A DNA stretch of 64,000 nucleotides from Candidatus Hydrogenedens sp. (GCA_049968235.1 JBMFRC010000004.1:1-64000); one strand, 5' to 3'; shown: positions 17,957-51,755, counted from the first letter of the stretch. Numbers and translations are program-made. The notes: generated by a model not told the origin, from the letters alone.

Positions 17957-19903
17957 TTATCTATGATACACTTTACTTTTCCGCAAAACAAAAATAAGCA
18001 ATAAGGTGGGGAATATAAGCAGGAGGGAATTATTAGTAATGCTTAAACCATGCGAGACATGTAAATAGACTTTTGGAGTTTCCACTACATTCAAATCATC
18101 TGAAACATGACACCAATACCAGCCTGAATCTTCAACGGATAAATCTTCAATATAAAGTTCCTGCCCTGATACATACGGAATAATTGTTGGATTGGGACAA
18201 AGATAATCTTTGCAATAATACCACTCATAGCCTATATTCCCCTGTGCTCCTTCTACATGAATAGTAAAAAGTTGCGATTCTCCAACAATTTTATTAATAT
18301 ATGTTTCCCCTTCTATCCATGCTATTAATTCGCTATCACCCTCTAAATCCCCCTCTCCTTCAAATATTCCTTCGATACTCCCTTCAGGTTCTCCATCTAT
18401 AATTCCTTCACTTTCAGGGCTCCCTTCTGATTCTCCTTCTATAATCCCCTCGCCTTCAAAAATACCTTCCGCCTCTCCATCTATAATTCCTTCACCTTCT
18501 GTAGGAATTCCTTCTGGAATTCCCTCGCCTTCACCATATCCCTCATTTATCAAGGTAAAATATGCTACATAATTTTTGTTCTCAATTATATTTGTATCTT
18601 TCCTGTTGGGAGTTAATAAACCATCTGACCAATGGTCAAAAAGATATCCACTATCCGCTACTGCAATTACTTCAGTTCCATCATTACCACGCATGATATT
18701 TTGCGTTGCATTTCCCAAAATATTTCCTCCAATATCCGCAGTATAAGTTACTGTAAATATCGGTGGTCTTTTTAATTCTGTAATTTTATAACTTATTTTC
18801 CCTCCTGCATAATAAAAATCCCCACCCACATATAAATTCCCTTGAGAATCGAACACCAGAGATCTGATTTCTTTATTTGAGCCATTTACTCCTGATGTTA
18901 TGCTACGCCAGTTACCTGAATACCACCATGCTAACCCATTTGCACTTATATTACCACCTGCAATGGAAAAATTACCTCCAATAAAAATAGATTGTGATGA
19001 TTTGGGTAAAATTGAATAAACGATGCCATTTACCCCGCCATCTAAAGAAGTCCACGAAGAACCATCCCAAATAGATATATTACTCACATTCACCCCACCT
19101 GCTTGTGTAAAACTTCCACCTGCATACAATCTACCCGTTTCATCTACCGCAAGAGAGTACACAGGTCCGTTAATTCCAGTTCCAAGGGAATGCCAATTCG
19201 TTCCATCCCAGCGGGCTATATTATTTGCAGAAACATTACCTGCATACTGGAATTGTCCCCCTGCATATATATTTCCATTAGAATCCGATGTTAATGACAA
19301 AACATAAGGAGAAGTGCCACCGCTCACACCCAAATAAGGTTCTACCCATTGAGAACCATTCCAATATGCAATCCGATTAATAGGTGTAGAACCGGACTGA
19401 GTAAATTTGCCTCCTACAAAGACTGTCCCATTATTTGTAATAGTTACCGTATATACAGCATCATTAAAGCCACTTCCTACCGCTACCCAACTCGAACCAT
19501 TCCACTTTGCCACTCGATTTCGGAGATTTGAACCCGAATAGGTAAATGAACCCACTGCATAAATTTCACCCCCTGTGGATATACATATTTTTTCTACCGC
19601 ATTATTAAAACCCTGTCCCATGGCTTGCCAATTTATTCCATTCCACCTCGCTACTCGATTTGCACTTACGCCATTTATTGAAGTAAAAGTGCCTCCACAA
19701 TAAACAATATTGTTATTATCTATGCCAACAGAGGTTATTAATCCATCTGTCCAATTAGGACTTAAAGGTTGCCAATCTTCATCAAGATAATTTGGGATAT
19801 CTTCTGAATATATAAAGGTCGAAATAATTCCAATAAAAACGACTATACCCAATCGTAGAAAAAATAGCATTCGTATCCCTTTCCTTTCATTTTTTCTGTT
19901 CAA
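17957..19903 (-). CDS. Secreted multidomain protein with four parts. They are W-containing beta-propeller repeats, a Listeria/Bacteroides-type B-repeat, an EG-rich acidic spacer plus Ig-like domain, and a C-terminal hydrophobic-basic tail.
   Basis: 648 aa. About 6 repeats of the pattern I/VARWNG-W-LG-G-NG-VY-L--D--GN-Y-GG-F. The B-repeat element reads GYLFDHWSDG. The spacer reads GEGEGIPEGIPTEGEGIIDGEAEGIFEGEGIIEGESEG.... The Ig-like signature reads CKDYLC...EDSGWYWCHV. The C-terminus reads LLLIFPTLLLIFVLRKSKVYHR. Confidence 0.6.
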   Translation of the reverse strand: MNRKNERKGIRMLFFLRLGIVVFIGIISTFIYSEDIPNYLDEDWQPLSPNWTDGLITSVGIDNNNIVYCGGTFTSINGVSANRVARWNGINWQAMGQGFNNAVEKICISTGGEIYAVGSFTYSGSNLRNRVAKWNGSSWVAVGSGFNDAVYTVTITNNGTVFVGGKFTQSGSTPINRIAYWNGSQWVEPYLGVSGGTSPYVLSLTSDSNGNIYAGGQFQYAGNVSANNIARWDGTNWHSLGTGINGPVYSLAVDETGRLYAGGSFTQAGGVNVSNISIWDGSSWTSLDGGVNGIVYSILPKSSQSIFIGGNFSIAGGNISANGLAWWYSGNWRSITSGVNGSNKEIRSLVFDSQGNLYVGGDFYYAGGKISYKITELKRPPIFTVTYTADIGGNILGNATQNIMRGNDGTEVIAVADSGYLFDHWSDGLLTPNRKDTNIIENKNYVAYFTLINEGYGEGEGIPEGIPTEGEGIIDGEAEGIFEGEGIIEGESEGSPESEGIIDGEPEGSIEGIFEGEGDLEGDSELIAWIEGETYINKIVGESQLFTIHVEGAQGNIGYEWYYCKDYLCPNPTIIPYVSGQELYIEDLSVEDSGWYWCHVSDDLNVVETPKVYLHVSHGLSITNNSLLLIFPTLLLIFVLRKSKVYHR

Positions 19904-31893: not shown

Positions 31894-31998
31894 ACCGTAT
31901 TACTCCATTTTTCTATAAAAATAATCTGGCCTGCAATTAACATAATTGCAGGCCAGGAGAGAACTACTTTGTGATGTTTTACACATCACTTTTGTTTA

Positions 31999-34686: not shown

Positions 34687-36429
34687 ATGGGCTATTTTTT
34701 ATTATTACTCACCGTTCCGTTTTTTTCATTTTCTACATTAAATAATGAGTTGAATTATTCTATACCTCCTAAAACAATTCTTTTTTCCGCCTCACCAGAA
34801 CAGATTATAAAAGATGCAGAATTATGGAAGGAGAATGGTGTAAATGCTTTCTTTCTTGACTTTATAGCCCGTGAGTGGAGCGATAATATCTGGGCGAATG
34901 ATAAAAAACCGTGGACTATTGGGAAGGATGATGACAATTTTAAGAAAGCGGCAGAAGCCAATAATATTTGTAAAAGAACAGGTTCAGAAACCTTTCTTAA
35001 AATTTCATTTGACCATTATTTAGATTGGTTTGATGATTTACAATGGGAAAATGTATTGCACAATTTCCGACAATTTGCTATATTTGCCAGAGAGACAGGT
35101 TGTACCGGTTTTGCTATTGATATTGAATACATTGGGGAACAATACCATTTAAATTGGGAAGGATATAAGTATGATACATACACCCGAAAGGACCTTATTA
35201 ATAAAGTAAAAGAAAGAAGTGCGGATTTAATTAACACGATATATAATGCATTTCCCAAAATGGTATTTTTGACTTTTCCGGAACAAGGTTTAAATCTCGG
35301 ATTAATTATCCATCTGACATGGATTGAAGAATTAGCAAAGAAAAATGCTCCGGGCGGACTTCATTATTGCATAGAACATACATATCGCATGAAAGACCCC
35401 GATGAAGTTCTCACATATATGGGGGGGATAGACCAAATCTTTCTTACCTATTTATCCCCTCGAGGTAAAAAATACTGGAAGGAAAAATGCTCTATCGCAC
35501 CGGGAATATGGCCCTTTGGTTATGATTATGATAAAGGTCATAAGGCGGGATTTACCACAGCAGAATTGAAACAATTATATGCTCTTCATATATCTGCATC
35601 GAAGAAATATCACTGGATTTACAGTCATAACTGTTATGAACAATTATTAGGTCGTCAGGCAGAATTGTTTGAAGATGAAGAACCTTTACAAAATTTTGTG
35701 GACATATTAAAACGGAAGGAATCTGTTTTAGATAGTTCTTTTAAGGAAAAAATTGATTTATTACAAAAAAGAGATTTCCAATTATTACAACAAAAAACAA
35801 ATTTTACTTACATTCCGTTTCCCGTAGGACCTGATGATAGTCCCCGTTTCCAGACCGCTCCGCTTCATAATTATGAATATGCCCATGATTATTTCTGGGA
35901 AATAGGAAAGAAATATCTGCAGGGAAAAGAAGTATCCTTCCGCAGTTTGTTTAATCCCATCACTCATTGGAAAATTGCAGGTCCTTTCCATGCGGAGAAT
36001 TTTAAGGAAACCCATGAAAAAGAATTCCCTCCCGAAACCGATATAAATACAGTGGATTGGAAATCTTTATCTATAGAGAACAATAAAATATCTATGGACC
36101 TTAATAAAATTTTTGGGAATCAGGAAGAAATCTGTGTTTACGCTTTGTGTACTATTGATGTTCTCCAACCCGTTTCCGCTCAAATACGATTTGGCTATAA
36201 TGACGCGATTAAGGTATGGTTGATAAATGGAAAGAAAAAAGACCTAATCTTTGAATATTTTGGCGAATCCTCTGTGGTACCGGATAAGACAGTAATTCCC
36301 GTATCCTTTGATAAAGGCACATATAATATCCTTATGAAAGTAACAAATAATAAACGATTTTGGGGGTATATACTACGAATAACTGACGCAAAAGGAAATG
36401 CATTACCTGCGAATATAATCAAATATTAA
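34687..36429 (+). CDS. Secreted TIM-barrel glycoside-hydrolase-like protein with a C-terminal beta-sandwich.
   Basis: 580 aa. The hydrophobic N-terminus is followed by an alternating beta/alpha pattern containing GFAIDIEYIG. No confident family assignment. Confidence 0.35.
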   Translation: MGYFLLLLTVPFFSFSTLNNELNYSIPPKTILFSASPEQIIKDAELWKENGVNAFFLDFIAREWSDNIWANDKKPWTIGKDDDNFKKAAEANNICKRTGSETFLKISFDHYLDWFDDLQWENVLHNFRQFAIFARETGCTGFAIDIEYIGEQYHLNWEGYKYDTYTRKDLINKVKERSADLINTIYNAFPKMVFLTFPEQGLNLGLIIHLTWIEELAKKNAPGGLHYCIEHTYRMKDPDEVLTYMGGIDQIFLTYLSPRGKKYWKEKCSIAPGIWPFGYDYDKGHKAGFTTAELKQLYALHISASKKYHWIYSHNCYEQLLGRQAELFEDEEPLQNFVDILKRKESVLDSSFKEKIDLLQKRDFQLLQQKTNFTYIPFPVGPDDSPRFQTAPLHNYEYAHDYFWEIGKKYLQGKEVSFRSLFNPITHWKIAGPFHAENFKETHEKEFPPETDINTVDWKSLSIENNKISMDLNKIFGNQEEICVYALCTIDVLQPVSAQIRFGYNDAIKVWLINGKKKDLIFEYFGESSVVPDKTVIPVSFDKGTYNILMKVTNNKRFWGYILRITDAKGNALPANIIKY

Positions 36430-36464: not shown

Positions 36465-37937
36465 ATGCTGGATAAGATAAATTTGAATTCTCGTATGTCA
36501 AAAGAACAGTTTAAAGAGATAATGCATCAATGGGAATTATCTTTAGGCACATTTCAGAGGGAACTGCGACAAAAAGGTATTCCAACTATTATATTAATAG
36601 AAGGCTGGGATACATCCGGAAAAGGAACATTATTGAATCATCTATTATTAAATCTTGACCCCAGAGGATATTGGGTGCATAATATAACAAAGCCCACAAG
36701 AGAAGAACGATTGCATCCTTATCTCTGGCGTTTTTGGAACAAATTGCCGGGATATGGGGATATCGCCTTTTTCAATCATAGTTGGTACTGGCCTATTATT
36801 TTAGAAGCACAAAAAGAAGGTTGGAGCTCAAATAAAATTCGCTCGGAATTAGAAGAAATTTTAACCTTTGAACGACATCTCATAGAAGATGGCAATTTAC
36901 TCATTAAATTCTTTCTGCATATTTCTAAAAAAGAACAGAAAAAACGTTTTGAAAAACTTGAAAAGGACCCGGATTTTCAATGGAGAGCAAAAGGGAAAAA
37001 TAAAGAATTACTCAAAACCTATGAAGATTTATATAAAATTGCAAATATAGTATTAAATGAAACACATACAGACATAGCACCGTGGCACATTATTTCCGCT
37101 ATGGATGAAAGATATTGTATTGCAGAAGCAGGCAACATCCTTCTTTCAAATTGGGATAATACTATAAAGAATGGGTTAAATATTCCTACATACGCAATAG
37201 CACCGAGACAGACGAACCCATTAGAAAAAGTTGACTTATCGCAATCTGTTTCACGAGAACAATATGATGAAATTCTCCCCAAATTACAAAAAGAGTTACG
37301 AAGATTACAATCTATTTGTTTTAAAGAAAGAATACCTGTGGTAATCATGTTCGAGGGTTGGGATGCTGGAGGTAAAGGAGGAGCCATCAAAAGATTGGTA
37401 AATGAATTAGACCCGAGAGGTTATGAAGTAATCCCCATAGGAGCCCCTCAGGGTGAAGAGAAAAAACATCATCACTTATGGAGATTCTGGAGGGCATTGC
37501 CGAAAGCAGGACATTTTACAATTTATGACCGTTCTTGGTATGGAAGGGTATTGGTTGAACGAATAGAGGGTTTTGCTCAACCCAGGGATTGGATGCGTGG
37601 ATATAGTGAGATAAATGAATTTGAACTGCAATTAGCAAAATGGGGAGCAATTATTGTTAAATTCTGGTTACATATATCCCCGGAAGAACAATTAAAAAGG
37701 TTTGAAGAAAGGCAGTCTAATCCTTTCAAACAGTGGAAAATTACAGAAGAAGATTGGCGTAATAGGGCAAAATGGAAAGATTATGAAGAAGCAGTATCCG
37801 ATATGATAGACAGGACATCAACGGTATATGCACCATGGACCATTGTGGAGGGAAATAACAAACTCTTTGCAAGGATTAAAGTTTTATATACCGTTATTAA
37901 TTCTATAAAAAAATTTCTCAAAAATAAAAAATCTTAA
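36465..37937 (+). CDS. ppk2: Polyphosphate kinase 2, two-domain type (polyphosphate:nucleotide phosphotransferase).
   Basis: 490 aa. Two PPK2 modules each carry a Walker A: IILIEGWDTSGKGT and VVIMFEGWDAGGKGG. Lid motifs are present. Confidence 0.85.
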   Translation: MLDKINLNSRMSKEQFKEIMHQWELSLGTFQRELRQKGIPTIILIEGWDTSGKGTLLNHLLLNLDPRGYWVHNITKPTREERLHPYLWRFWNKLPGYGDIAFFNHSWYWPIILEAQKEGWSSNKIRSELEEILTFERHLIEDGNLLIKFFLHISKKEQKKRFEKLEKDPDFQWRAKGKNKELLKTYEDLYKIANIVLNETHTDIAPWHIISAMDERYCIAEAGNILLSNWDNTIKNGLNIPTYAIAPRQTNPLEKVDLSQSVSREQYDEILPKLQKELRRLQSICFKERIPVVIMFEGWDAGGKGGAIKRLVNELDPRGYEVIPIGAPQGEEKKHHHLWRFWRALPKAGHFTIYDRSWYGRVLVERIEGFAQPRDWMRGYSEINEFELQLAKWGAIIVKFWLHISPEEQLKRFEERQSNPFKQWKITEEDWRNRAKWKDYEEAVSDMIDRTSTVYAPWTIVEGNNKLFARIKVLYTVINSIKKFLKNKKS

Positions 37938-38230
37938 TTTGGTTTAACGCCATCTTTTATAGAAATTCTCTTCATTTTTTTTGCGTTTATTATATGTGCA
38001 TTAAACAAATACTTTATTTGTTATTTAAATAACAATTATTTTTGTGCTTATTTTTTATTTTTAAATAGAAAAATCAAATCACAATTATTCAATATTTTTA
38101 AAATATTTTTTTATTATCTATAAGTATTTATAATTCAGAAGTTTAAACAGGCATTAAATATATATAAACAAATTAATATATATAATTGATATTTGCATTT
38201 AATTTTTATATATGTTATACTATATATGTT

Positions 38231-38515
38231 GGTAGCAGATCTGTGAATGTGTTCCCTATGCTACTACTACTACACATCAAGGTCCAATTGAATCCAACAC
38301 ATAGCGAAGCACATAAAATAGCTGCCAGTGGTTGTCCTCCCATTACCACTGCAGTACATATCTCTCTCTCCGGAATAACTGATATCCCGGTTTACCCCGG
38401 CCGGGAATCCTCTCTTCCGCTTCTCCGCAGATCTGCTACCTCTTTTACTCTGACCCCCCTCAGAGTTAAAACTATAGAGGTGCCGGTTACCCCCTACCGG
38501 CACCTCATTTTTTTT
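38231..38515 (+). ncRNA. Candidate structured non-coding RNA of about 285 nt, class unknown, closed by a 13-bp long-range helix and ending in an intrinsic terminator.
   Basis: GGTAGCAGATCTG (38231-38243) pairs perfectly with CAGATCTGCTACC (38428-38440). There are several internal hairpins: UGAAUGUGU/ACACAUCA, CUGCCAGUGGU/ACCACUGCAG and CUCUGA-C6-UCAGAG. An AT-rich promoter-like region sits upstream. It ends in a GC-rich hairpin plus T8. No credible ORF. Confidence 0.4.
38477..38515. terminator. Rho-independent terminator, likely bidirectional.
   Basis: The stem is GAGGTGCCGG-(loop TTACCCCCTA)-CCGGCACCTC, followed by TTTTTTTT on the plus strand. It lies 30 nt downstream of the convergent minus-strand gene that ends at 38540. 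Confidence 0.7.
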
Positions 38516-38539
38516 AGAAATGGTATTAATCTCCTTTAC

Positions 38540-39670
38540 TCAAAGTATTTTTTGAGATATTATATTTATACTTCTTATTTCATTGAATAAGTCTTTTACC
38601 GTGCATATCACATTTACACCTGCTTGAGAATTTAACAGTTGCGTAATCTGGTCTGGATTCAAGGACTTAATATTCCATTCATTTATTTTTATAAGGGTTT
38701 CACCCCCTCTCAGATTCTCCAACCATGCAGAAGAGTTTTTTACGACGCCAATGACCCAACCCTCTTCATCGAGATAATCGAGCACGATACCTGTTCCTGT
38801 CCATTCCTTCACATCAGAAATATTCGTTTTTAAGAAACATATTTTTGATTCCTCATAGTTCATTTTGAGGACAAATTGTTTCCAGAAAGAAGTTCCTAAA
38901 GAAATTTCTTTTTCACCTGGAACTGAGATGGAAAGAAGATTCTGAAACTTTTGATTACCTAACCGTAATGTTTTTAATCGGAAATATTGAATTACCTTCT
39001 TATTACGGAAGTGAACAAATTTACTATCTCCTGTTATTAAAAACCTTTCATTTACAAAACTCATAGGAAAAATTACATATTCGTTCCTCACAAAATCAAT
39101 ATTAGCGACAACAACAATCTTATCATTGAGAGTAACTGGGATTTGTGGTATTGTACTTTCAGAAGAAAAAAATATTTTTTCACAGGCAATATCTTTTGTC
39201 TTAACTTTCTCTTCTATGGATATTAATTGCCATACAAGTTTCCCTTTCCCGAAATCTATATATATTTCAAAACCGGGATAATAAATAGGTAGTATTCCTT
39301 TTATAGGTACTCCAACTTTCCGTGATATATCTGATAAATCCGATAATATAATTTTTCCCTGATATTTGGGGATAAATGGTATATTACAATCAAATTCTTT
39401 TAAGGTGACATTTTTGTATTTCTGATATTTTTCTAAATTTGTATCATTTCTTTTTTCTAATATAGGGACAGAAATCCCCGCATCTAACAGATATAATGAT
39501 TGTGGATAATTATCGTTTGCATTGATAAGAATTGCCCCTCGCTGGATAGAAAAAGAGGCTTGAATTTGGTTGCCCTCCATAGAAAAGCAAGTAAAACATA
39601 ATAAAGTTCCAGTATAAATAAGAAAAGAGATTATGACTATATAGAGATATACCTTATTCCTAATCAGCAC
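38540..39670 (-). CDS. Membrane-anchored hypothetical protein with a C-terminal PDZ-like domain, possibly a retropepsin-like protease.
   Basis: 376 aa with an N-terminal TM. LLDAGISVPIL is a weak resemblance to a D(T/S)G aspartyl-protease motif. The C-terminal GWVIGVVKNSSAWLENLRGGETLIKINEW is PDZ-like. Confidence 0.35.
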   Translation of the reverse strand: MLIRNKVYLYIVIISFLIYTGTLLCFTCFSMEGNQIQASFSIQRGAILINANDNYPQSLYLLDAGISVPILEKRNDTNLEKYQKYKNVTLKEFDCNIPFIPKYQGKIILSDLSDISRKVGVPIKGILPIYYPGFEIYIDFGKGKLVWQLISIEEKVKTKDIACEKIFFSSESTIPQIPVTLNDKIVVVANIDFVRNEYVIFPMSFVNERFLITGDSKFVHFRNKKVIQYFRLKTLRLGNQKFQNLLSISVPGEKEISLGTSFWKQFVLKMNYEESKICFLKTNISDVKEWTGTGIVLDYLDEEGWVIGVVKNSSAWLENLRGGETLIKINEWNIKSLNPDQITQLLNSQAGVNVICTVKDLFNEIRSINIISQKIL

Positions 39671-39673
39671 AAA

Positions 39674-40411
39674 CTAATTTTTCCTTGTCATTATAGTTTC
39701 TATCCATAGTTTTATTTGTTCCTTTACATGGGCAAATGATTCTAATAAAATAAAATTCGTATCGTCTGTCGGATAGGTCCTCATCTCACAAAAGGAATGG
39801 TTTTTCTCGTATAACTGCAAGGAAAAATTATATGAGTTTTTATCATTTTCTCCCACAGATATAAATGTTGGGATATTGAGTAGATTGTTTTTTATTATAT
39901 CATAATTGTTGGGGTCACAATAGGGAGAAAGAAGAACAAGCCCTTCAATACAATCGGATTGTACTTCTTTGCACAGAGAGAAACATCCTAATTTGCCGGG
40001 TAAAAGAACAAATTTTTTGTCCTGAGGGAGGGCATTATTTAGAAAATTACAAATGGAATTTATATCACTGTTCGTATTGGGAGAACTTATATAACTATGA
40101 AATATAGATAGCCAATCTGCTACTAAAAATACAAGTTTATATTCATTGCTAACAAAGTCATTTAATACTGATTTTATTTTTTCAATATCTTCATCTTCTT
40201 CTACAAAGACAATAATAGCAATCTTTTTCTCTATTTCATTAGCAGAATTATGTGATATGTTTTGTAAGAAAACTGTATTTGAATTAATTGAAAAGGTATG
40301 TTCCGCAACGGGCGGAGGGATATTCTTTTTACACTGACAAAGAAACAACGGAAATACGATAAAAAGGGTTATAAAAAAGAGAACGATAGTTATTTTCTTT
40401 TTTAAGTTCAT
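39674..40411 (-). CDS. Lipoprotein-like hypothetical protein, possibly an alpha/beta-hydrolase fold.
   Basis: 245 aa. The signal sequence with Cys reads ...FPLFLCQC. It lies 3 nt upstream of the PDZ protein gene on the same strand, so likely co-transcribed. Confidence 0.35.
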   Translation of the reverse strand: MNLKKKITIVLFFITLFIVFPLFLCQCKKNIPPPVAEHTFSINSNTVFLQNISHNSANEIEKKIAIIVFVEEDEDIEKIKSVLNDFVSNEYKLVFLVADWLSIFHSYISSPNTNSDINSICNFLNNALPQDKKFVLLPGKLGCFSLCKEVQSDCIEGLVLLSPYCDPNNYDIIKNNLLNIPTFISVGENDKNSYNFSLQLYEKNHSFCEMRTYPTDDTNFILLESFAHVKEQIKLWIETIMTRKN

Positions 40412-40421
40412 AGAAAAGCGA

Positions 40422-40453
40422 GCAGGGAATACTTAACGGTAAGTATTCCCTGC
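40422..40453 (-). terminator. Hairpin downstream of the SCP2 gene, a possible intrinsic terminator or attenuator.
   Basis: GCAGGGAATACTT-(AACGGT)-AAGTATTCCCTGC is a 13-bp perfect stem. On the minus strand it is followed by UCGCUUUUCUA. Confidence 0.35.
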
Positions 40454-51716: not shown

Positions 51717-51755
51717 AGGAGCCTATTATTCGCAATGAATAATAGGCTCTTTTAG
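51717..51755. terminator. Rho-independent terminator after pyrC, bidirectional with the convergent oxidoreductase gene.
   Basis: GAGCCTATTATT-(CGCAATG)-AATAATAGGCTC, followed by TTTTAG. Confidence 0.6.

Follow-up and report, generated by a model that had tools for sequence, protein, structure and literature searches.

A predicted structured small RNA gene beside ppk2 in Candidatus Hydrogenedens and its relatives

The ppk2 locus and the signals of the element

Members of the uncultured candidate phylum Hydrogenedentota are common in anaerobic digesters, and a literature search on non-coding RNAs of Hydrogenedentes returned nothing relevant and no regulatory RNA described for the phylum. Here, an intergenic element is described on a 64,000-nucleotide (nt) stretch of DNA from Candidatus Hydrogenedens sp. 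(GCA_049968235.1 JBMFRC010000004.1:1-64000), the whole of which is referred to below as the window and is numbered from its first letter. The element occupies positions 38229-38515 of the plus strand, between ppk2 (36465-37937), whose product has two PPK2 domains, and a convergent gene on the minus strand (p376; 38540-39670) whose product has 376 amino acids (aa). An earlier reading of the window from its sequence alone (the sequence-only reading) had proposed an unclassified structured small RNA (sRNA), closed by a 13-base-pair (bp) helix and ending in an intrinsic terminator. That proposal is supported by homologs of the element, by compensatory changes in their helices, by a predicted promoter and terminator held in register, by the absence of a conserved open reading frame (ORF), and by the lack of a match in Rfam. 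Taken on these grounds, the element is very probably a genuine, selected non-coding RNA (ncRNA) gene.

The perfect long-range helix that had been claimed is exact: GGTAGCAGATCTG (38231-38243) is the reverse complement of CAGATCTGCTACC (38428-38440) over all 13 bp. A composition-matched shuffle of the window is expected to contain, on average, 0.02 perfect 13-bp inverted repeats with at least six G or C and lying within 300 nt. The window holds 11 overlapping 13-mer inverted-repeat matches of any composition, mostly short-loop hairpins or AT-only sequences, and the 38231/38428 pair is the sole long-range, GC-balanced case among them. The plus strand between 38225 and 38520 has a predicted folding energy of −103.7 kcal/mol, compared with −60.3 ± 4.9 kcal/mol for dinucleotide shuffles (z = −8.9), and fold z-scores of −8 to −10 were obtained in three lineages. 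Within a window that is AT-rich overall, the element forms a GC island (44-55% GC) preceded immediately upstream by a spacer of 11-20% GC. C clearly exceeds G on the plus strand of the element, and the RNA is C-rich and G-poor in all copies (29-35% C and 17-22% G).

The AT-rich, promoter-like stretch remarked on in the sequence-only reading resolves, in a promoter scan, into a predicted promoter in conserved register. It comprises a −35 box, TTGCAT (38193-38198, plus strand), which reads TTGAAA, TTGTAT, or TTGACA in homologs, and, 17 nt after it, an extended −10 box, TGtTATACT (38213-38221, plus strand), whose counterparts in homologs are TGnTATAAT-like and lie 17-18 nt downstream of the −35 box. 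Sequence conservation starts at the −10 box, and transcription is predicted to start 7-9 nt past it, at about 38228-38231. When 14 upstream sequences were placed without gaps on the 5′ end of the RNA, the −35 box stood at a constant distance from the RNA in all of them; besides the two boxes, upstream conservation was limited to the last 2 nt before the RNA, and sequences further upstream could not be aligned. At the other end, the hairpin with a loop of six C residues (38447-38466) and the GC-rich terminator with eight T residues were both located where they had been described, the latter by a terminator scan (38477-38515, plus strand; 11-bp stem at 38477-38506 with eight G-C pairs, loop UUACCCCCUA, T-run at 38508-38515). 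The U-run of this terminator is the 3′ limit of conservation, and it is separated from the stop codon of p376 by 25 nt. The element is thus predicted to be an independent transcription unit, with its own sigma-70-type promoter and a Rho-independent terminator.

Homologs, synteny, and phylogenetic range

Full-length matches to the approximately 285-nt RNA, by nhmmer and by covariance model, were found in 18 other loci, and these homologs, to which the sequence-only reading had looked for covariation, carry compensatory changes in the 13-bp helix. They came from three sources. Searches with nhmmer and blastn identified the element downstream of ppk2 in L001, L004, and L002; a synteny-independent scan of metagenomes for two invariant motifs, TCCTCCCATT and GGTTTACCCCGG, separated by 25-55 nt, matched 9 contigs with a single copy each; and contigs with ppk2 homologs 66-87% identical to that of the window yielded 6 more loci. 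In total, 19 copies representing 16 distinct sequences are present in Hydrogenedens-like genomes and metagenomes. These sequences form two clades, of which clade A includes 12 window-like sequences and clade B consists of L002, L090, L092, and the truncated L091. All copies share the gene order orf580, ppk2, RNA, convergent p376-p245-SCP2, and a CoA-ligase/GNAT gene, with one copy per contig. Two of the homologous loci have additional non-coding DNA: the distance between ppk2 and the RNA is about 790 nt in L095 (3974-4766), compared with about 290 nt in the other loci, and in L092 about 650 nt with no called gene (2198-2844) lie between the RNA terminator and the p376 homolog.

Neither nhmmer with the --max option nor covariance model R1 identified a copy in the outgroup locus L093, where ppk2 is 57% identical, the spacer is GC-rich, and synteny is broken, or in about 12 other Hydrogenedentota ppk2 loci, the scan being confined to these loci. 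Among the ppk2 loci scanned, the element therefore appears to be limited to a clade in which ppk2 is at least 66% identical to that of the window. The ppk2 protein is 93% identical to its homolog in Candidatus Hydrogenedens terephthalaticus, followed by relatives in Hydrogenedentota metagenome-assembled genomes (MAGs), some of which bear 'Nitrospirales' record labels. Because of these relatives, the genome is placed in Hydrogenedentota, and its earlier placement in the Planctomycetes-Verrucomicrobia-Chlamydiae (PVC) group is wrong. It should be noted that records titled 'uncultured Nitrospirales' (L002, L004, L008, and L009) carry ppk2 and the neighboring genes and that two of them, L002 and L004, also carry the RNA. 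Since all four group with Candidatus Hydrogenedens and Hydrogenedentota, these labels are probably wrong.

The conclusion that no convincing ORF is present also stands. Two ORFs overlap the element, one of 134 codons on the plus strand and one of 77 codons on the minus strand, and neither is kept in any homolog. Both frames are specific to the window; in homologs, which differ by indels of 1-2 nt, a different frame gives the longest ORF. These frameshifting indels exclude a protein product. A 14-codon mini-ORF at 38247 was likewise rejected, as it has no Shine-Dalgarno sequence, is shifted in frame in L004, and has 7 codons in clade B.

Further, no known RNA class was recognized, as the sequence-only reading had proposed. 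A scan of the 64-kb window against Rfam 15 (4227 models) returned nothing at gathering thresholds, and at E ≤ 10 the region 37900-38600 yielded sub-threshold chance matches only, the best being RUF2 (25.7 of 90 bits) and LhrC (22 of 110 bits). Nothing relevant, and no 6S RNA, was found at E ≤ 10 in the clade-B copy L090, and ARAGORN reported no transfer RNA (tRNA) or transfer-messenger RNA (tmRNA). As a family, the element is new, matches no Rfam 15 family, and is confined to a narrow lineage.

Selection, covariation, and the transcribed strand

Over the core delimited by the two arms of the closing helix (P1), clade A copies are 90-96% identical to the window, compared with 50-69% at third-codon positions of ppk2, 55-73% in the spacer between ppk2 and the RNA, and 61-83% in p376 DNA in the same comparisons. 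The proteins encoded by neighboring genes diverge much faster than the RNA, with p376 homologs being 32-79% identical across the clade. Clade-B cores have an overall identity of 68-72%, which is concentrated in blocks at 100%; ppk2 third-codon identity in these loci is 42-45% and ppk2 protein identity is 66-70%. The blocks that are 100% identical when clade B is included are GCUGCCAGUGGUUGUCCUCCCAUUACCACUGCAG, CCCGGUUUACCCCGGCCGGG, CUUCCGCUUCUC, GUGUUCCC, and CAAUUGAAU.

A consensus structure of the 16 sequences assigns standard pairs to 99.2% of 962 paired cells. Pairs changed on both sides number 13, compared with 5.2 ± 1.5 in column shuffles, none of which (0 of 500) reached 13, and slid controls, in which partners were moved by 1-3 columns, gave 0-5 two-sided pair changes. 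Among copies with both arms of P1, three pairs are compensatory and there is no mismatch. About 102 of the 962 paired cells (~10%) are G-U. Because a G-U pair would be an A-C mismatch on the other strand, these cells indicate selection on the RNA of the plus strand, to which the direction of the predicted promoter and the U-run likewise point.

Anatomy of the predicted RNA

The outermost helix, P1, joins a 5′ arm, GGUAGCAGAUCUG (38231-38243), to a 3′ arm, CAGAUCUGCUACC (38428-38440), and covariation analysis shows that the two arms pair in every copy that has both (14 or 15 copies per pair). The changes in P1 are compensatory (U-A/G-C, G-C/U-A, and C-G/U-A/U-G), together with one A-U to G-U change. 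Inside it, the predicted P2 domain (38248-38296) pairs UGUGUUC (38248-38254) with GAAUCCA (38290-38296); a (CUA)n loop that varies (38261-38272) and the invariant CAAUUGAAU lie between the two strands. P2 is predicted by the consensus fold of both clades and by separate minimum free energy (MFE) folds of two clade-B copies; because its pairs never vary, covariation speaks neither for nor against it. A second interior helix is predicted to be long-range, pairing GAAGC (38306-38310) with GCUUC (38419-38423) in the consensus and clade-B MFE folds and enclosing the hairpins P3 and P4. It is invariant except for one C-G to U-G change, and a second register is possible because the 3′ block holds CUUC twice.

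P3 is an 11-bp hairpin (38321-38355) with an invariant 12-nt loop, UGUCCUCCCAUU (38333-38344). Its 34-nt block is identical wherever it is covered, that is, in 15 complete copies and in the truncated L091 to its end, except for the first base in L083, and the pair at the base of the stem covaries (G-U, G-C, or C-G). The loop, UUGUCCUCCCAUUA, contains CCUCC, the complement of the GGAGG Shine-Dalgarno core. Between P3 and P4 lies a CU-repeat linker, UCUCUCUCUCC (38361-38371), for which a single-stranded state is predicted and in whose place clade B has UUCCCUCA. In P4 (38385-38406), UCCCGGUU and GGCCGGGA flank a UACCCC loop. The 20-nt block of P4, CCCGGUUUACCCCGGCCGGG, is identical in 15 of 15 complete copies, and the basal pair of the hairpin covaries (U-A, G-C, or G-U). 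The same holds for the identity of the CU-rich block CUUCCGCUUCUC (38414-38425; 15 of 15 complete copies), which includes the 3′ arm of the long-range helix, and the tract at 38409-38427 outside GCUUC (38419-38423) is predicted to be a second single-stranded CU-rich stretch.

Downstream of the core, P5 (38447-38466) consists of ACUCUGA, a CCCCCC loop, and UCAGAGU; its stem covaries, with an A-U to G-C change in 7 copies and several G-U pairs, and the C-run of its loop is kept in most copies. In the terminator, compensatory changes affect four pairs of the stem, and the CCCCUA loop is largely conserved. C-rich motifs of at least 4 nt are thus found in the loops UGUCCUCCCAUU, UACCCC, CCCCCC, and UUACCCCCUA, all of which are predicted to be unpaired in the consensus and single-sequence folds.

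Of the further hairpins, at least three, that the sequence-only reading had drawn inside P1, those at 38321-38355 and 38385-38406 hold in all homologs, whereas the pairing of 38247-38253 with 38308-38314 and that of CCGGA with UUCCG break in clade B. The helices found only in the MFE fold of the window (AUGUGUU/GAAGCACAU, CCUAUG/CAUAG, CCGGA/UUCCG, and GAU/AUC) are broken without compensation in all clade-B sequences, and for that reason they were replaced by the consensus model. A GUUCCC/GGGAAU pseudoknot was also dropped, as clade B carries GGGCAC or GGGUAC there without compensation. Two repeats vary in number by lineage, the (CUA)n of the P2 loop (38261-38272) in 3-nt steps and the (CU)n of the linker (38361-38371) in 2-nt steps; these changes have the look of slippage at places where a change of length is tolerated.

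Comparison with characterized RNAs

As a kind, the element fits the bacterial stand-alone sRNAs with C-rich loops. The 6C RNA of Actinobacteria (RF01066; B11/6C in M. tuberculosis) is a short RNA with few hairpins. Like it, the predicted RNA stands alone and presents C-rich hairpin loops, here those of P3, P4, P5, and the terminator, the first two of which are invariant. Unlike it, the RNA is about 285 nt long with a helix-closed multi-branch core, comes from a different phylum and from an AT-rich rather than a GC-rich genome, and shows no similarity to 6C in sequence or by covariance model. For 6C, it was shown genetically that the C-rich loops pair with G-rich ribosome-binding sites of several messenger RNAs (mRNAs) (PMC6486639).

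A second comparison is with LhrC, whose weak alignment to the 3′ module of the element (38431-38513) runs via the C-rich loops and the terminator. With a score of 22 bits, where the gathering threshold is 110, the element is not a member of this family (RF00616). In LhrC and in RsaE/RoxS of Firmicutes, CU- or C-rich motifs (UCCC, CCCC) in loops, single strands, and the terminator loop pair with Shine-Dalgarno regions. Unlike LhrC and RsaE, the element has no sibling copies, and it carries an extra conserved core of about 210 nt upstream of the module. Compared with 6S and Ms1 RNAs, it is similarly stand-alone and similar in size, joins its 5′ and 3′ regions in a long helix that closes the molecule, and shows strong conservation among the members of its clade. 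It differs from 6S in that its interior is predicted to branch several times and to contain CU-rich single strands, instead of forming a rod with a central bubble, in that its 3′ half is too pyrimidine-rich for pairing with the 5′ half, and in having no 6S match at E ≤ 10.

Possible modes of action

The preferred reading, which is held tentatively and at just under an even chance, is that of a stand-alone structured ncRNA gene of about 285 nt on the plus strand of a Hydrogenedens-like lineage that acts through C/U-rich pairing. The particular mechanism, by analogy with the RNAs above, is possible but more doubtful: a trans-acting sRNA that would pair with G-rich or Shine-Dalgarno sites. Such an sRNA is favored because of the many unpaired C/U-rich sites, the two invariant loops, and the 6C-like design. 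Transcription would run from the element's own promoter, starting at about 38229, and would end at the terminator (38477-38515). In the product, P1 would close a core of about 210 nt made up of two domains, the 5′ one being the hairpin domain P2 and the other carrying P3 and P4, and the core would be followed by a 3′ module of two hairpins, P5 and the terminator. C- or CU-rich sequence would be presented in the loops of P3, P4, and the terminator, in most P5 loops, and in the two linkers, from where it could pair with G-rich mRNA sequence, chiefly ribosome-binding sites. The CCUCC of the P3 loop, for example, could pair with a GGAGG-type Shine-Dalgarno core, and such pairing would block translation or alter the stability of the mRNA. 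Among genes of the window, AGGA/GGAG-type Shine-Dalgarno sequences precede 17 of 37 long ORFs, compared with a background of 7.8%.

Several observations weigh against this reading. First, a search of the 64-kb window for sequences complementary to the CU block or to the loops of P3, P4, P5, and the terminator showed no enrichment, and no match lay convincingly at a start codon; match counts were at chance level or were due to purine-rich coding repeats. Second, the P3 and P4 hairpins are invariant, stems included, between clades that share only 66-70% identity in the ppk2 protein, and seed pairing explains this no better than protein recognition or a tertiary fold would; the stems of established C-rich-loop sRNAs are free to covary. 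Third, at about 285 nt and with a helix-closed multi-branch core, the RNA would be about three times the size of 6C, LhrC, and RsaE. Fourth, the C-run of the P5 loop is lost in L095 and the hairpin itself is absent in L083. Finally, the interior helices P2 and GAAGC/GCUUC are invariant and hence predicted only, being compatible with the comparative data, and the promoter, start site, and terminator are all predictions.

An alternative that would draw on the same features, and that is a serious rival although considered rather unlikely, is that the RNA binds protein, as a sequestering RNA or a scaffold, with the P3 and P4 hairpins and the CU linkers contacting a protein or ribonucleoprotein (RNP) partner, such as a C/U-rich-RNA-binding protein, in the manner of CsrB/RsmZ, 6S, or Ms1. 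In all complete copies, P3 and P4 have stems that are 100% identical, in contrast to the free covariation of P1, P5, and the terminator; because of this difference, a sequence-specific recognition of whole hairpins is suggested. The repeated C/U-rich sites, the large size and helix-closed core of the RNA, and the search of the window that gave no convincing mRNA target are also in line with protein binding. Against it, the neighbors are ppk2 and genes for uncharacterized proteins in which no RNA-binding domain was detected, the clades do not share conserved CsrA-type GGA motifs, and, as noted above, the fold is not rod-like and no 6S match was obtained at E ≤ 10. A related proposal, judged unlikely, is that of a lineage-specific RNA in which the invariant P3 and P4 and the CU strands come together in a defined RNP or a defined tertiary fold, rather than an ordinary seed-pairing sRNA. 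Such an RNA could be, for example, a global regulator that titrates a C/U-rich-RNA-binding protein or an anti-Shine-Dalgarno mimic that competes with 16S ribosomal RNA (rRNA) simultaneously at many ribosome-binding sites.

An improbable reading is that of a large structured RNA that would function by itself, for instance as a ribozyme, a ligand-binding RNA, or a tertiary fold, with the invariant blocks as tertiary contacts or an active site, and the description of it as ribozyme-sized in the sequence-only reading is pure speculation. The invariant blocks of 34, 20, and 12 nt, which persist despite the ppk2 third-codon identity of 42-45%, the multi-branch core inside a covarying helix, and the fold z-scores in three lineages would fit such a function. 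However, the element is found in one genus- or family-level clade and is absent from the other Hydrogenedentota loci examined, it matches no ribozyme or riboswitch family, and it has no downstream gene on the same strand to regulate. Moreover, a good part of the core is predicted single-stranded CU-rich linker, and no pseudoknot or tertiary covariation was seen.

Other known types of element are highly improbable. A 3′-untranslated region (UTR) or terminator of ppk2 or p376 might be suspected from the position of the element between convergent genes, from the 25 nt between its terminator and the p376 stop codon, and from a partly U-rich tract that follows the terminator hairpin on the minus strand of the window; this tract is not conserved in clade B, and the in-register promoter lies directly upstream of the RNA and is separated from ppk2 by a non-conserved spacer of 190-750 nt. 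A riboswitch or leader is opposed by the next downstream gene, which is convergent in all loci and thus leaves no gene on the same strand, and a small protein gene by the 1-2-nt indels that break the ORFs and by the changes of frame or length in the mini-ORF at 38247 between lineages. A superficial likeness exists between the flanking repeats and those called a1/a2 in a retron msr-msd, but no adjacent gene encodes a reverse transcriptase (RT): the neighbors are ppk2, three genes whose products lack a domain match above threshold, SCP2, and an acyl-CoA synthetase/GNAT gene, and the element is followed by a terminator and a convergent non-RT gene. Finally, a miniature inverted-repeat transposable element (MITE) bounded by the 13-bp arms as terminal inverted repeats, which the sequence-only reading had kept as a fallback to be favored by copies elsewhere in the genome, has practically no chance of being correct and is refuted by the copies themselves: the perfect inverted repeat around about 185 nt in the window is the one point in its favor, whereas the 19 loci, nine of them found by the synteny-independent scan, hold a single copy on each contig and in an unvarying position, with ppk2 on one side and the same convergent gene on the other, no second copy is present in the window and no match to the element in viral contigs, plasmids, or phages, substitutions in the arms are compensatory or G-U and so preserve pairing of the RNA on one strand, no target-site duplication flanks the arms, and a conserved promoter upstream of the 5′ arm and conservation for about 75 nt past the 3′ arm, terminator included, lie outside them.

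The locus is therefore best described as a well-bounded, covariation-supported RNA gene with a predicted promoter, a predicted terminator, and invariant loops, and as a candidate new RNA family. Should ribosome-binding sites prove to be where its C-rich loops act, the mode of action of 6C, LhrC, and RsaE would reach into a distant, AT-rich lineage; binding of protein by the invariant hairpins, on the other hand, would make the RNA the marker of a new RNP. Either way, the range is narrow, that of one genus- or family-level clade, and the function is one that we infer.

Upstream palindrome and other features of the window

An all-AT 18-bp palindrome, TTGTTATTTAAATAACAA, lies at 38018-38035, 211 nt upstream of the start of the RNA, and has the form TTGTAATTTAAATTACAA in clade B. 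It is found 189-213 nt before the RNA start in 11 loci of both clades (the window, L001, L081, L084, L086, L088, L095, L002, L090, L091, and L092), in a flanking spacer that is only 55-73% identical, and it is decayed in L004 and L087. In L095, it keeps its distance from the RNA although the ppk2 stop codon is about 790 nt away. We infer a link between the palindrome and the RNA gene. The palindrome may be an operator or another upstream site, such as one for a transcription factor, or it may be a weak terminator or an end of the ppk2 transcript. Were P3, P4, and the CU strands to form a defined RNP or tertiary fold, the palindrome would be a dedicated control site.

Three neighboring genes encode products that have no Pfam match above threshold, namely those of 376 aa (38540-39670, minus strand), 245 aa (39674-40411, minus strand), and 580 aa (34687-36429, plus strand). 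The first of these had been called a PDZ protein, a name that is not upheld by its weak, sub-threshold C-terminal PDZ match (E = 0.056).

Elsewhere in the window, imperfect 42-nt (14-codon) direct repeats at 18338-18533, which are CU-rich on the plus strand, lie within a long minus-strand ORF (19870-17957) and probably encode a Glu/Gly-rich repetitive protein segment. Because of these repeats, GAGAAG-type matches were spuriously in excess in the target search. Three other perfect inverted repeats of 13-14 bp with short loops, at 31926-31956, 40422-40453, and 51719-51749, resemble the hairpins of intergenic intrinsic terminators, and the second of them is situated in the short gap between the SCP2 and p245 genes, both of which are on the minus strand.

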